Shown here: positions 1-39,321 of the stretch, in pieces
How positions within the stretch are numbered: position 1 is the stretch's first letter
How the letters are laid out: every line of letters starts with the position of its first letter
Source of the DNA: Dirinaria sp. TL-2023a
Lineage: Eukaryota
Length of the DNA stretch: 50,533 nucleotides
Assembly: GCA_051941275.1 (NCBI GenBank)
Contig: JAVEBF010000022.1
Location: 1 to 50,533, forward strand
Direction of reading: 5' to 3'
The notes under the pieces: generated by a model
The model's database searches: none
Told to the model about the DNA's origin: nothing
Seen by the model: only the letters and a program-made list of their open reading frames with translations
Made by a program: the position numbers and the translations under genes

Positions 1-346
1 TTGGCGCTGCCGGGACTTTTACCATTGGGAAACCTATCTAACCAAGATTGGGTCTTTGACAAGAATGAGTTTGAATATCTTTAACGTCTTCTATTTCAAG
101 CTCATTAAGAACGATCGAATATTGAAATATTCTGATTCGCAACTCAGGACGAACATGAAAGGCAAAGTTACCACCAAATTGCAGGACGTTCTAACTACTA
201 GAGGCTTCAAGTTCACTCCATTGGCGAAGATGAAGGAATTTTTACAGATCGTTGACACTAAACAACGCAACCTAGTGTACAACAGAGCGAAAATCGATCG
301 ACGACAATCGTCGCGCACTGTGTCAGGATCGGTGCAGAAGATATGA
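1..346 (+). pseudogene. Fragment of an LTR-retrotransposon gag-like ORF
   Basis: The translation FNVFYFKLIKNDRILKYSDSQLRTNMKGKVTTKLQDVL...MKEFLQIVDTKQR resembles fungal Ty3/gypsy gag-like proteins from memory. It runs directly into decayed repeat sequence and LTRs. Confidence 0.4.
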
Positions 347-1074
347 TCTATGTAGATGCTATCAACTAAATATACAAAGTATGAAGAAGAAAAGAAATCT
401 ATGAACTAGAATCACATTTAATATAAATGTGTAAACGTTAAACTCTGATCGATCGAATCGATTATCACTTCGAATGCGCTAGCTTCGATCAGATCAAAAC
501 TCAACATCACACACAAAAATCTTGTAAAAAATGACTCGAGTAACAACAGTGAGAATCAGACTCGTAACAAGTGAGAAAAAAAAGAAAGAAGTGTGTGAAA
601 AAAAAGAGACGTTCGAGTTTTTGTAATCAAAAGAAAGTATTGTTTTATGATAATGTTGCTTCATTTGTTGTAACACGATTGATTCGAATAACACGACTGC
701 GAAAACTTTAACGATTGTGTCTGAAAATGTCGTTAGAGATCGCGTTGTCTGATGCAAGCATCGACATGTCGTTCGCTGTTTTGATCAAATCGCGAGAGTG
801 TTAAAATCTTTTGAAGCAGACTCATTATTCGTTCATGTACTGAGTATCTCGAATCGCTCTTAAAGCAGACTTATTATGTTCAACTTTTTACGTTTTCGAC
901 GATAAACGAGTGAAATCGTTCTTTCGTTGCACTGTATTCAAAACTGCTTTTAAAACAGACTCACTATTCGTTCGTTTACTTTGTATCTCGAATTTTCTTT
1001 TTCGTGTGATCATCTTTTCGTAGAATTTCTCAAGCTCTTTCGTGTGACGATGTCTGTTCGAAAATAACTTTTTC

Positions 1075-1288
1075 TGTTACAAGCATGCATCTGATATACT
1101 ATCTGAGACAACATCTCTCAGAGTTCTCAGAGGTAATGCGCTAACTCGATCGGGATACGCGACACCCGCACGCGTATATATCTGAGACCCCCATTGTATC
1201 TAGCTTCTCTTCTTCTTCTTTCCTTCCTTAGTGATAATATCCTTAGTTAATCATACCTGCATTGACCTGCTCTGCACCGGTTCTAACA
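1075..1288 (+). mobile_element. LTR-like unit (214 bp)
   Basis: Begins TGTTACAA and ends TTCTAACA (7/8 inverted termini, TG...CA). Contains a TATATA and a pyrimidine tract, and its composition differs from the flanks. No clean TSD. Confidence 0.55.
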
Positions 1289-2326: not shown

Positions 2327-3230
2327 CTATTCTTTTTCGCACCACCCACAACTAATGTTGGTCAGTGACAAACCACTCTGCTGCACAATTATCTCAGCTA
2401 CCCGAGGCACAGCGCGGCAATAGCTAATATGCGCTGGATACGGCGGTTTTGACCCATTGTGCTGACAATAGCCGTCGCCATCAAAGCATATTTCGATCGC
2501 AACTGTGTGGATGCCGCCCAACGACGTGCCCCTATCTGGGTCGCCGAACAGAGCGACTGATTTTACGAATGATGTTAGGTCTTGAGAAACGTAGGTTGGA
2601 TAGGTGGAAATGTTTCTGGCGGCGTTGTGGACGAGCTTTAAGTGTTGTTAGTCAGGGTTTCAATTCCTGATAGAGCATTGCCCCAATCACTGGCGGAGAC
2701 CGAAGCAGATGAACAAGAGATCCTTCGTTCTTCTCTGAATTCGTATCGCCGGGAAATTTCCAAGAACTTACCATAGCGCCCTGACTGTACCCACTCACCA
2801 CCAAATATGTCCCCGGACAGCGCCTTTTCGCCACTGAGATCGCTTCTGCCAACCACCTACTCCCCGACACGCTCCCCACCCCATGTAGCGCTTCATATAG
2901 TATTGCTGGATAATTGTTGACACCCTGGACCGTCACCTGATCGGGGCCCAGCAAGGCTTTCAGAGCCCGTGCCAGGGCGGGTCCGACGCGGGTGCCCATG
3001 TTGCCGATCTCCTGGGAACCCCGTGCGAAGAGGAGGGTTAGGGGTCGGCATTGTTTCTGTACCAGTAAGTCGTTGGAGATAGAGTTGAGGGAGCGGCCGG
3101 AGTGGCACGGTGATTTAAGAGCGAGTGGTTGGGGGTGGGGACTTATGTTGGGGGAAGGAGGTGGCGGCGATGCGGATTGAGAGATGGAAAGGGTGACGAG
3201 GTAGAGGATGGAGGCCAATGAGAGTCGCAT
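2327..3230 (-). CDS. Secreted cutinase (CE5 alpha/beta hydrolase), 2 exons
   Basis: Signal peptide MRLSLASILYLVTLSISQS. Motifs FARGSQE.GNMG, nucleophile GYSQG, VALFGDP, CFDGDGYC (catalytic Asp) and PAHISY (His). Intron 2771-2636 (GTAAGT...ACTAAC...TAAAG) restores the frame. Confidence 0.93.
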
Positions 3231-9127: not shown

Positions 9128-9760
9128 TCTAGTGGTGAAAGATGGTATTTGCTGAAGGTGTCTGAGTTTGATGCTGCAGCGTCCATGGCCTTAGGAACGT
9201 CTGTTGTCTGGGGACTAAACAATAGATAAGTATAACTACCAACAGGCTGTCCTGCAGCAGGTCAGCATTAAAATGACTCATTTTCGTTCCTGCAGTATGA
9301 CCTCTGACTCGCATAACCCAATCGAGCGTCAATGACACTAATGTTGGCCAAGCATACATGCAATATGGCAGGTTTGCTCATTATCATCAACGTAAATCTG
9401 TGAGCATATGTCTTTGCGATCTTTCTATTGAAGCTAGACAGCATTCTGGAAGCTGCTTTGATTGCGTTAACGCTTTAAGCAACACTGTGTTATTACATTT
9501 AAATATATTCATCTTTTCTCAAGATACTCGACTTAGGTATTCAACAATGCATCTGTCTCGTTCATCTTCACGATTTCCGTGCTACCTCAGAGTTAGTGCC
9601 ACATGATGATGCGTGCGAAGATTTTCTCATAATATGTCTCCATTCTGCGGCTTAAAATAAAGTTGGTTGACTTCTGATGTTTTTTTCTTTTTTTTTTTTT
9701 TTTTGAAGAATACTCGGATTCACCCCCTTTCTTGGTTCACCTACTTCCTTGATAGGGTTA

Positions 9761-9940
9761 CTCGTACTCGCCTACTTTCTTGGGTCACCTACGGTACTTT
9801 CTTGGGAGGGTTAGGGTTATCTCCACCAAAATTCTTCCAACCCTACCTACCTTACTTAGGGTTATGGGGCTCTTGGTGGGATAACCCTAACCCTCCCAAG
9901 AAAGTAAAGTAGGTGACCCAAGAAAGTAGGTGAGTACGAG
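9761..9940. mobile_element. MITE with ~70 bp TIRs and TA target duplication (Tc1/mariner type)
   Basis: TA|CTCGTACTCGCCTACTTTCTTGGGTCACCTAC..TACTTTCTTGGGAGGGTTAGGGTTATC is mirrored nearly perfectly at 9880-9940, which is followed by TA. Confidence 0.85.
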
Positions 9941-10012
9941 TAGGGTCAAAATATTCACTCCATCAAAATGTCTTTCATCATCAAACAATCTGATGCTTAT
10001 GACTGTCTAATG

Positions 10013-10221
10013 TGCATCAATTTAAGAGATGACTGTGAAACATTTTTTTTCCCAAATGCTCGATCGATGTCAAATTAAGCTTGAATTGCATTATACACGT
10101 CAGATGATCATTTCGCATCTCTCGAAAAGACGATGTCTTGTCGCGATCGACAGTTTCGCAACGTAAGTTCGTATCGCAGATTCTTCAGATCGATGACATC
10201 TCTGACTCTTAAATTGATGCA
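10013..10221. mobile_element. Possible older MITE with 16-bp perfect inverted termini
   Basis: TGCATCAATTTAAGAG (10013-10028) and CTCTTAAATTGATGCA (10206-10221). The interior is CC/GG-poor. No clear TSD. Confidence 0.4.
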
Positions 10222-10796
10222 TCTGAGGAAGCAGATTATTTGACGTTGCAAAGCAAGTTCAAGCTCAAGCTCACAACTTGATTCCGCCCGGACAACACAT
10301 CATTTCAATTTTGCTGTCGTGGCCTTCTCCTCCGCTGTACACGAGTATTCTCTAATGTGAAGATGAGAGGGAGCTCCTAAACTAATGCTCCCGTACTCAA
10401 TATTTCCTTTTTGCTCGGGACAACCCTTGCTTGAGGGGGCATCTACCGCGATATGAGGGCTATTCCGTCCGAGGTCTGTATTTATTCTTCAATATCTACT
10501 TTTTTTTTGTAATCACTACATGGCCAGGTATATCACCACTATGCCCCTCCCTCAACCCCACAAAAAAAAGTCGCCGGGTCGAGGGAAGTAATGCTGATCA
10601 AGGGAGGCTTGCCTCCTACCTAGGCGCTGCCCTATAGAACGCAGATTGAAAAATCATGATAGAAATGAAAGAGAATCTATATTCCGCGCATGATACAAGT
10701 ATAGGTACAAGCTTTTATCCAAACTCCTGCACAGTTCCATCAATGCAGTCGCGGCCCGACCTAAAGCGTGCTTCTCCTCTACCTCCTGTCCGTTTG

Positions 10797-37115: not shown

Positions 37116-39321
37116 CTACCCCATCTTCGCATCCAGACTGTTGCCTTTCCGTACAAATACCTCGCCGACAGGGTCTCCACTTTCCTTAAGGACCTCCCAG
37201 TTTCCTGTGCCCAATTCCTTTGGTGCCTTTTTAACACCCCGGCCTCCGCCACCAATGATCAAGTTCCCGGGACGATAGTTTTCGTCAAACTCCATCCTTC
37301 TGAGGGCCGAATTATGTATCCAAGCGCCCTCCGGTATGTCCCTGACCTCGCCCATTGGCAGAGGCAGAGAGATTGCCTGCCATGAACCATCAGGCCTGAG
37401 ATCCATTCTCCTAAAGGGCAGGTATTCCATCAATTTCCACGACAGCACCGATGCTCGGCTCAGTCCGTTATTAAATTCGAGACAATCGTGCAAGGTACCT
37501 TGTGTGGCTGCTGTATGAAGGTGCTTGTGAAACTTGGACGGCGGCCGAGGTTCAGGCTCCAGACCAGGCGCCCAGCCAGATTGGGCCTGATCGCTATGTG
37601 GACTGCGAAAGAGGTCCGTTGGACGAGTCACTTGCACTTCAGGGATTGGAGGCTTGTTGGCCTTGGATGCTGCATTCACCCAGTCAGACTGATCTTCACA
37701 GCAACGCAGGGCGCGCATCTTCCCCTGATCGAATTCCAGGCCTGCTTTTTGCGCTTCCCTTACCATCCAGACCAAGGGCCCGTGACTGAGGGGGACTTCT
37801 TCACCACTTGCTAATGGCCACCCTCCGCCCAGGTCAGCGTGACAGCCCGGAAACCAGACCTCCTCTATGTTTTGGGCAGCTGCTTCGTCTTCGTCTTCTT
37901 CGTCATCTGGCTGAACCAAAGAAGGTATCATGGAACCCTGAGAAACCACACTATGGATAGAGCAAGCGTCCTGATCCGCTGCAATGGTGTGCGACTCGGA
38001 GCCCACGGACCTATACTGGGGCCTCTCTTGCGATGCCAAGCGAACAGTGGAGCCCAAACTTGGCATAAGATGACCTTGATCGTCTTGAGCACTCAAATGA
38101 GGACTGCGTGCACGTGGGCTTCTTTCTCCCATCGCTCGGACTTGACTCGGACGTCGGAATCGATCAGAGGCTTGTGGTGTAGGCAATCCATCTCTGTTGT
38201 GCTCCGTCGTTGAGCTGCCGTTTGTTTGTGCTTGTTTCCTATGATGATGGTGCCGACGATGCTCATGATCCTTTGACATTCTCGTTTCGGAAATTAAATC
38301 TTGACGGAACTTGGCACGGCGCTCATCGATACTTACGGCATGGCGAATCACCTTTGCGGAGCTCCGGGCTGTGTAGGGAAATTTGCTTCTTTGCATCCAG
38401 GCATTTTCGAACCTTGGTACGCTGTTGACTTTTGAATGTCAGCTTTCCAACCGAGATAGCGATAGCGCTACCACAGACCGGTGTCAAAAAGGCCAAGAAA
38501 GCGGATACGTCGGACTGGACGACTAAAAGTTTCTCGAAATCCACGCAAATATTCAAACATCTGTGCTTTCTTCTGCTTCTCTTCGTCGGTCCCTTCTTGA
38601 CGTTCCTGCCATTGTGAGAAAGCTTTCCACGCAAAGCCTTCCCAGAGTCAGACCCAGTTGTGGTTTAGTAAAGATTCAATGAGACGTACGAGCCAATTCC
38701 TCGTTTCCAGCACTAAGCAACCCTACGTGATCCAACATCTCGGCTAGGAATCGTGCTACATAGGCCCCACGACTGAATCCGAAAAAATAGAGATCGTCCT
38801 CGAAGTTATAGGCTTGCATCAAGAATTTGTAAGCGCCCATGACGTGTTCATCGAAGGAAGTCCCCACAGCGGAATCTTTGGCCTTTTGATACCAGGAAGA
38901 AAATCGCGCGGGTAAGCTGGTGTGAGACAACGACCTTGTGTTGACATAGGTGCCGATGCCAGGCTGGTGGTATCAGCAGGAAGCTAGCGGATGTGCACAG
39001 CGCCGCTGACCTGATAGTAATGACGGTCTCCATTACCCCTGTCTAACATTCGATATATCTTGAGGATGTTGCTGTCGGCATCAGTGCCTGAGCTTGTAAG
39101 TCAACAGTCGCCTGTAGAATCGCAAGAGGCAGCAGGGGATTGAGAATCGGACAAGGCAAAAACGATCGATATTTACCTTGAAACTTATTGCCTGTGCCGT
39201 CAAAACAGAGAATTATCTGTTTCAAAATCAGCACGGGAGCAAAGTTAGGAGGATGATGGGTCTCGCGAACCTTTTTCCTTGACTGTGACGGTAGGTAACC
39301 TTGCCGTCGGCCAGATGCCAT
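37116..39321 (-). CDS. DUF2235 alpha/beta hydrolase (Tle1 phospholipase-like)
   Basis: ILCFDGTGN, YYQPGIGTY, nucleophile FGFSRGAY, FLGLFDTVNSV, RHAVSIDERR and EVWFPGCHADLGGG. About five introns. The start codon is uncertain. Confidence 0.9.

Follow-up and report, generated by a model that had tools for sequence, protein, structure and literature searches.

The DNA described here is a stretch of 50,533 nt, hereafter the window, corresponding to positions 1-50,533 of contig JAVEBF010000022.1 from Dirinaria sp. TL-2023a, with a GC content of 48%. It is filamentous-ascomycete DNA: its genes, which include those for a cutinase, citrate synthase and an MFS transporter among others, are split by introns, and its rRNA methyltransferase has its closest named relatives among the Lecanoromycetes (Hypocenomyce, Physcia, Mycoblastus, Cladonia and others). 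A search of the window against Rfam returned no family. At its left end lies a fragment of a retrotransposon gag gene, followed by a cluster of runs in which the dinucleotides CC and GG do not occur at all, and one further run of this kind lies deeper in the window. The features are as follows, with the evidence in brackets.

2-331, plus strand: fragment of an LTR-retrotransposon gag gene (protein relatives, tblastn, composition)
332-1132, unstranded: main CC/GG-free run, 801 nt, probably a relic of saturated hypermutation (counts, shuffles, simulation, Pfam)
808-993, plus strand: direct repeat within the main run, 808-854 and 947-993, 47 nt, 85% identical
1133-1279, unstranded: segment that has kept its CC/GG, with 16 occurrences; (CC+GG)/(TC+GA) = 0.76
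1280-1522, unstranded: second CC/GG-free run, 243 nt (gap and dinucleotide counts)
1522-1660, unstranded: partly depleted segment, 5 CC/GG remaining; (CC+GG)/(TC+GA) = 0.16
1661-2095, unstranded: segment whose composition is normal; (CC+GG)/(TC+GA) = 0.85 (background of the window 0.82)
2096-2250, unstranded: third CC/GG-free run of the cluster, 155 nt (gap and dinucleotide counts)
10053-10227, unstranded: isolated CC/GG-free run of 175 nt; the depleted zone around it spans 9945-10287

The second run has an internal repeat of its own at 1341-1470, with a spacing of 33-57 nt. The partly depleted segment carries the purine tract AGAGAAGGAG at its end, and a tandem repeat with a unit of 21-22 nt occupies 1910-1964 inside the segment of normal composition. 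Gene-bearing DNA begins 3′ of the third run, where the cutinase ORF lies on the minus strand at 2652-3230.

A first-pass annotation of this DNA had placed CC/GG-free sequence at 333-1131, 1281-1521, ~2100-2249 and ~10054-10226, and a listing of all gaps between successive CC or GG dinucleotides bears these coordinates out. The four runs are the longest such stretches in the 50,533-nt window, which contains no further CC/GG-free stretch of at least 100 nt; after them come gaps of 96, 91 and 88 nt, compared with an average of 9.1 nt over the whole window. The main block, 333-1131, has a composition of A 265, C 135, G 140 and T 259 (34.4% GC), from which 22.8 CC and 24.5 GG would be expected, and neither dinucleotide is found even once. 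Shuffling the mononucleotides of the block 20,000 times gave an average of 47.0 CC and GG together (sd 5.9) with a minimum of 24, and under an independence model the chance of a block free of both is ~1e-21. Taken together, the four blocks (1,366 nt) contain no CC or GG against ~91 expected, while the remainder of the window has observed/expected ratios of 0.96 for CC and 0.93 for GG, and the genes are unaffected. The absence of CC and GG from these blocks is real and far beyond chance. AT content is ruled out as its cause, since the expectation was built on the block's own composition.

The other dinucleotides of the main block behave as the same annotation had described, with CA/TG and CG plentiful and TC/GA enriched: the observed/expected ratios are 0.98 for CA, 1.23 for TG, 1.73 for CG (41 occurrences against 23.7), 1.60 for TC and 1.44 for GA, with TA at 0.56. 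Two candidate causes were rejected on these counts. Decay of methylated CpG, which would leave CpG depleted and TpG/CpA in excess, is contradicted by a CG ratio that is 1.73 in 333-1131 and rises to 1.80 over the four blocks. Collapse of homopolymers during assembly would turn CC into C and would not create an excess of TC and GA, and the block has kept 106 AA and 85 TT dinucleotides as well as two intact runs of 8 A. Because CC and GG are both missing from one and the same stretch, both strands must have been hit. The block offers 493 distinct single substitutions that would restore a CC or a GG, none of which is found, so that the process is either recent or recurrent; expressed as bounds, the divergence since the last sweep is below ~1.7% for the main block and below ~1% for the four blocks together.

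The frame of the gag fragment is open over 2-343, with a stop codon at 344-346, and the product has 10 relatives in a library of 1.84 billion proteins, the best of which (P0121) matches with an E value of 4e-25 and 62% identity; these relatives contain zinc knuckles (zf-CCHC) and Retrotrans_gag. In tblastn, homology spans 62-331 with P0121 and 2-268 with P0130, and none of the ten gag relatives gives anything significant past 331. This end of homology abuts the start of the CC/GG-free run at 332, which argues that the run and the gag fragment are distinct pieces of DNA that have been joined. Translation of 333-1132 in six frames, with X at stops, revealed no coding relic, matching no Pfam family at E<0.01. 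A repeat search together with blastn at word size 7 found no second copy of 1-2400 or 9400-10700 within the window, barring the internal 47-nt repeat, and there is likewise no second copy of 1133-1279 or 1661-2095 within the window. The search for a target-site duplication around 1133-1279 and around 1522/1661-2095 returned low-complexity chance matches only. The segment at 1661-2095 could represent an LTR or have been inserted later. The first-pass annotation treats 1133-1279 as a short embedded LTR and AGAGAAGGAG as a PPT, both of them putative designations. The gag fragment (2-331) is itself mildly depleted, with 23 CC/GG observed against ~37 expected, and this, together with the undepleted state of 1133-1279 and 1661-2095, calls for an extra assumption on any account of the runs as mutated DNA, for example that the pieces differ in age or were inserted later.

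The direction of change in the window was approached by simulation: candidate mutation rules were applied to the rest of the window, and the outcome was compared with the block by correlation over the 14 dinucleotides other than CC and GG. A rule that turns CC into TC and GG into GA yields a profile that correlates with that of the block at r = 0.83, against r = 0.25 for no change at all, r = -0.06 for the rule CC to CT with GG to AG, and r = -0.07 for CpA to TpA. The values predicted by the first rule lie near those observed for GC content (37.4% predicted, 34.4% observed) and for the observed/expected ratios of CG (1.48 and 1.73), TC (1.66 and 1.60), GA (1.68 and 1.44) and TA (0.50 and 0.56). 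On the strength of this fit, the block resembles DNA of the ordinary host type once each CC, on both strands, has had its first C changed to T. What the window itself directly provides is the lack of CC and GG on either strand, the sharp borders of the runs, and a composition of the kind that the CC-to-TC and GG-to-GA rule predicts.

Copies that can be compared with one another came from a second fungus. When metagenomes were scanned with the window's own gag family, none of the 591 pattern hits proved to be a relative. Proline and glycine are nearly absent from several proteins distantly related to the window's gag, and one such Pro/Gly-poor gag family, ~30% identical to the gag of the window, was used for a second scan of metagenome contigs, which gave 316 relatives from which 80 loci were kept. 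These represent a distantly related Gypsy family, and no blastn hit links any of the 80 loci to any part of the window. They come from another Lecanoromycete, to judge from a UbiA gene in the flanking DNA whose best named match is in Usnea florida at 77%.

The composition of these loci comes near to that of the window blocks. The whole-locus observed/expected ratio of CC+GG is below 0.10 in 49 of the 80, with TC+GA at 1.4-1.8, TA at 0.5-0.7 and a GC fraction of 0.30-0.42, and there are 176 CC/GG-free runs of at least 1 kb, which total 351 kb and of which the longest measures 6,638 nt. The 79 full gag copies hold a single TGG codon between them, and each copy has 4-11 in-frame TGA, 0-3 TAA and 0-1 TAG. 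In L007 the Gypsy pol frame (1,275 codons, with RT, RNase H, integrase and chromodomain) is open once 16 TGA are read through, and the table-4 ORFs of L007 and L025 contain retroelement parts only (Gypsy RT/RNase H/integrase/chromodomain). Gene callers read the TGA-riddled frames of such loci with the Mycoplasma code.

The copies fall into three subfamilies that have diverged by 0.7-1.8% in transversions and by 7-10% in transitions. By subfamily, the fraction of C changed to T is 0.62, 0.75 and 0.55 at CpC, 0.15, 0.27 and 0.27 at CpG, 0.09, 0.19 and 0.11 at CpT, and 0.04, 0.10 and 0.08 at CpA; a strict count, in which the context is taken from the least-mutated copy alone, gives 0.87, 0.67 and 0.81 for CpC. 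The 5′ neighbour has little effect (ACC 0.75, CCC 0.70, GCC 0.76, TCC 0.68). At columns polymorphic for C and T, the outgroup subfamilies have C in 162 of 167, 280 of 323 and 171 of 177 cases, so C is the ancestral state. The first-pass annotation had claimed a C-to-T change that prefers the CpC context, and this is supported by the simulation on the window and by the copy comparison in the other Lecanoromycete, both of which bear on the window's own genome only indirectly.

The loss follows repeats. In these loci, the observed/expected ratio of CC+GG in 250-nt windows is 0.52 outside repeat coverage but falls to 0.09 at a coverage of at least 3, and in L039, L029 and L010 the number of CC/GG, which stands at 40-115 per 500 nt, falls to ~0 at the point where repeat coverage starts. 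Every affected element that could be classified is a retroelement, namely the gag of the window and the Gypsy elements in L007 and L025. The two LTRs of single elements were compared as well, with 24 of 36 upstream/downstream repeat pairs kept (length 240-290 nt, spacing 5.4-5.9 kb) and 12 dropped. The 24 pairs, aligned over 6,332 positions, differ by 444 transitions and 12 transversions, a ratio of 37:1. The first-pass annotation had suggested that short repeats might fall below a length threshold for mutation, yet the 265-bp LTRs found within full elements of this fungus are heavily mutated.

These observations bear on the explanation that comes closest to competing with a repeat-triggered mutator, namely slow decay, in which a DNA methyltransferase of heterochromatin methylates the first C of CpC and the 5mC then deaminates spontaneously, over long times, with neither a repeat-pairing trigger nor a premeiotic burst. 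Such decay would suit the restriction of the signature to transposon-rich and presumably heterochromatic DNA, and the bound of <1.7% on divergence in the window accommodates a continuous process as well as a recurrent one. Set against it is the tempo of loss in the other fungus, where copies at ~1-2% transversion divergence have already lost 50-85% of their CpC sites and copies more diverged in transversions have no larger a share of mutated CpC (r = -0.39); the excess of transitions between paired LTRs is likewise that of hypermutation and is not clock-like. Moreover, CpG, the classical site of 5mC decay, is enriched in the window block. We consider slow decay unlikely, though for the window itself it is the likeliest of the alternatives.

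The strands and the paired LTRs weigh on a second alternative, in which an AID/APOBEC-like deaminase edits single-stranded retroelement cDNA and each new insertion brings the signature in with it. That all classifiable affected elements are retroelements is what such editing would produce, and CC-preferring deaminases do exist: APOBEC3G prefers CC, edits the second C, and acts on one strand before integration. In the other fungus, by contrast, CpC loss is alike on the two strands (0.61 against 0.63 in one subfamily and 0.75 against 0.76 in another), and top-strand and bottom-strand loss rise and fall together across copies in the two larger subfamilies (r = 0.75 and 0.88), the third, with 8 copies and 5 bottom-strand sites, giving r = -0.17. 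Individual copies thus carry the change to an equal extent on either strand, and the window for its part lacks both CC and GG. In addition, the LTRs of an insertion start out identical at integration, and yet within pairs they no longer match at 146 of 201 CpC sites, compared with 8-21% in other contexts (a strict version of the count gives 127 of 225), which places the changes after integration. The composition of the block, finally, fits mutation of the first C and not of the second in the simulation. Editing of cDNA is accordingly given very little credence. Still less can be said for the view that there is no mutation footprint at all and that the block owes its state to an intrinsic or selected composition of non-coding DNA, or to a sequencing or assembly artefact: it draws on the fact that the block has no detectable homolog or coding relic and hence no known ancestral sequence, and it runs up against the ~1e-21 chance, the intact A/T homopolymers, the TC excess that collapse cannot yield, and the same signature in independent assemblies of another fungus, with Pro/Gly codons lost and TGG turned into TGA.

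For the other Lecanoromycete, then, the copies directly establish that C is ancestral, that CpC is preferred, that both strands are affected, that only repeats are hit, and that the change comes after integration; the process in that fungus has the anatomy of RIP with the context order CpC >> CpG > CpT > CpA. For the window, we favour the reading, with a probability of roughly 0.7, that the four blocks are old repeat- or transposon-derived DNA that has been saturated by RIP-like C-to-T mutation at the first C of CpC. The agent is most likely a genome-defence mutator by which CC becomes TC, the reverse of the target preference known from other fungi. That the window blocks were made by the mechanism seen in the other Lecanoromycete is suggested by the likeness of the end state; against it, the dinucleotide profiles of the two fungi correlate at no more than r = 0.51. 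The two differ at CpG, whose observed/expected ratio is 1.8 in the window blocks, where it is spared, against 0.86 in the saturated runs, where it is a secondary target, and the organism of the window may represent the purest form of the CpC process.

The steps of such a mechanism can be outlined provisionally. Repeated duplex DNA would be recognized in place in the chromosome, after integration, and cytosines on both strands would then be deaminated in bursts that halt where single-copy DNA begins. CC would become TC on the top strand, and the same change on the bottom strand would read as GG to GA, with the contexts ranked CpC >> CpG > CpT > CpA, in reverse of Neurospora. The activity may fall in the sexual cycle, before meiosis, and a plausible candidate enzyme would be a deaminase resembling a DNA methyltransferase of the RID/DIM-2 type whose preference for the 3′ neighbour has been altered. 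Either a RID/DIM-2 variant whose 3′-neighbour pocket has changed or a wholly different deaminase would fit. A RIP-like process with CpC preference is, on this evidence, probably the best explanation, its copy-level support coming from the second lichen-type fungus. By extension, we lean towards the broader view that Lecanoromycete (lichen-forming) fungi run a RIP-type defence with a cytosine-modifying enzyme that prefers CpC, whose relics are missed by screens, such that RIP-like activity in these fungi has been under-counted.

RIP is the textbook genome defence of fungi, and its CpA preference is built into RIP indices, into segmentation by GC drop and into screens for AT-rich k-mers. Relics at ~35% GC with low TpA would thus be missed by RIP screens based on GC content or on TpA/ApT. 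If the main reading is true, the hypermutated transposons of lichen fungi have been systematically overlooked or mis-annotated, and context specificity is an evolvable property, which would provide a natural handle on the enzyme residues that read the 3′ neighbour. It would also supply a simple new diagnostic in the form of CC/GG-free runs or a (CpC+GpG)/(TpC+GpA) index.

We found no report of CpC-dominant RIP in the accessible portions of the literature, a search that did not extend to the 2011 survey of ascomycete RIP contexts by Clutterbuck. As given in the available parts of the sources, the context order is CpA>CpT>CpG>CpC in N. crassa, while in Trichoderma reesei CpA~CpG come first, followed by CpT>CpC (PMC5496416), so that the preference proposed here would, if true, fall on the context least affected in the RIP systems examined by experiment. 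RIP in Neurospora comprises a RID pathway and a DIM-2 pathway according to the accessible text of bioRxiv 10.1101/344036. In what is available of a 2025 survey of 1,239 fungal genomes, RIP-like defences share a preference for CpA and repeat-enriched k-mers are AT-rich (PMC12543289). RIP-like variants of basidiomycetes have TpCpG or CpG as targets (PMC4352252, PMC4014442). In lichens, RIP has been recognized by GC drop or by standard indices in Cladonia rangiformis (PMC12542154), where its products are AT-rich at 10-20% GC, in Xanthoria (PMC13486527), in Endocarpon (PMC3897900), and in a paper on the Helitrons of lichenized fungi (PMC13535494); the accessible sections of these Cladonia, Xanthoria, Endocarpon and Helitron papers give no contexts for the mutations.

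The indices themselves illustrate the point. The thresholds quoted in the available text of PMC3897900 are TpA/ApT >0.89 and (CpA+TpG)/(ApC+GpT) <1.03. TpA/ApT in the four blocks is 0.69, 0.48, 0.69 and 0.29, all under the threshold, and (CpA+TpG)/(ApC+GpT) is 1.02, 1.00, 1.45 and 1.60, two of the four falling just under 1.03. RIPCAL, in the part of its description that is accessible, includes CpC>TpC among the four types it considers possible, with an index of its own, and reports the dominance of CpA (PMC2621366). The claim in the first-pass annotation that standard RIP indices would miss the signature therefore holds for TpA/ApT, which fails in all four blocks, and has to be qualified for the second index, which narrowly catches two of them, and for RIPCAL, whose CpC index, going by that description, would detect it. 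The canonical CpA preference of RIP is absent in the other fungus, where CpA is the least-hit context (0.04-0.10).

Among known systems, APOBEC3G editing resembles the present case in that C-to-T change is directed at CC and the frames of retroelements are destroyed through their TGG codons; it differs in that here the first C is the target, as the simulation indicates, and both strands are hit after integration, as seen in the other fungus. The TpCpG hypermutation of Microbotryum and other Pucciniomycotina is, in the available parts of its descriptions, likewise a lineage-specific C-to-T change in transposons outside the CpA context (PMC4352252, PMC2621366), but its target C stands before G and leaves TCG depleted, whereas in the window block CG (1.73) and TC (1.60) are both enriched. 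The closest parallel is RIP as known from Neurospora crassa and other Pezizomycotina. The other Lecanoromycete shares with it C:G to T:A transitions carried to saturation on both strands of chromosomal DNA, the restriction to repeats with sharp borders to single-copy DNA, and the inactivation of transposons. In contrast to RIP, as far as its accessible descriptions go, the order of contexts is reversed to CpC >> CpG > CpT > CpA, and the product in the window has ~35% GC and a TpA/ApT of 0.29-0.69, compared with the 10-20% GC of Cladonia rangiformis (PMC12542154). The nonsense codons of the other fungus, too, are of a different origin, being nearly all TGA derived from TGG and not TAA or TAG derived from CAA or CAG.

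Public gene calls for hypermutated gag copies were evidently made with translation table 4, in which TGA is read as Trp. Database proteins of such copies (P0126 and P0130, relatives of the window's gag fragment, and their own relatives) are abundant in Trp, lack Gly and are nearly devoid of Pro, with 13 Trp residues in P0130. The DNA of 79 related gag copies, from the gag regions of L001-L080 (80 metagenome loci of a distantly related Gypsy family in another Lecanoromycete), holds a single TGG codon in total and 4–11 in-frame TGA codons per copy. Trp-rich proteins alongside DNA of this kind therefore indicate calls in which TGA stood for Trp, and the broader meaning is that protein databases are taking in dead fungal transposons as intact ORFs.

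The following pol gene, with 16 stops that are all TGA, shows very cleanly how GG>GA can be the sole origin of nonsense codons:
L007 6374-10201, plus strand, Gypsy pol (RT, RNase H, integrase, chromodomain), 1,275 codons

Some loci on differently named contigs (L015 with L016, L040 with L045) have identical or nearly identical statistics, for instance in length, CC+GG count and longest run. Evidently one genomic region was assembled in several metagenome records, and L001-L080 are therefore not 80 independent insertions.

The gag fragment of the window (1-332) is only mildly depleted, with 23 CC+GG dinucleotides versus about 37 expected and a (CC+GG)/(TC+GA) ratio of 0.45 versus a background of 0.82, even though it immediately adjoins a saturated block. 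Between 52 and 146 it has neither CC nor GG. Three further features lie in the window:
9759-9821 and 9880-9942, inverted repeat of 63 nt, arms 95% complementary, spacer 58 nt
1910-1964, tandem repeat, unit 21-22 nt, 2.3-2.5 copies
37116-38396, minus strand, ORF of 426 aa, PF09994 match (E 6.5e-21)

The inverted repeat, whose arms carry GGGTTAGGGTTA, a telomere-repeat-like motif, may be a MITE-like element; it adjoins a T-run (9680-9704), and the CC/GG-free run of 10053-10227 follows shortly downstream. The tandem repeat, with units beginning TAACCC, sits within a segment of normal composition (1661-2095). The ORF matches the catalytic domain of Tle1-like T6SS phospholipase effectors, and the surrounding genes are fungal.

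Secondary specificity seems to differ between the two lichen-type fungi. CpG is enriched in the window's CC/GG-free blocks (observed/expected 1.8), whereas in the CC/GG-free runs of L001-L080 the ratio is about 0.86, and in that other fungus CpG is the second-best target, with 15–27% mutated.
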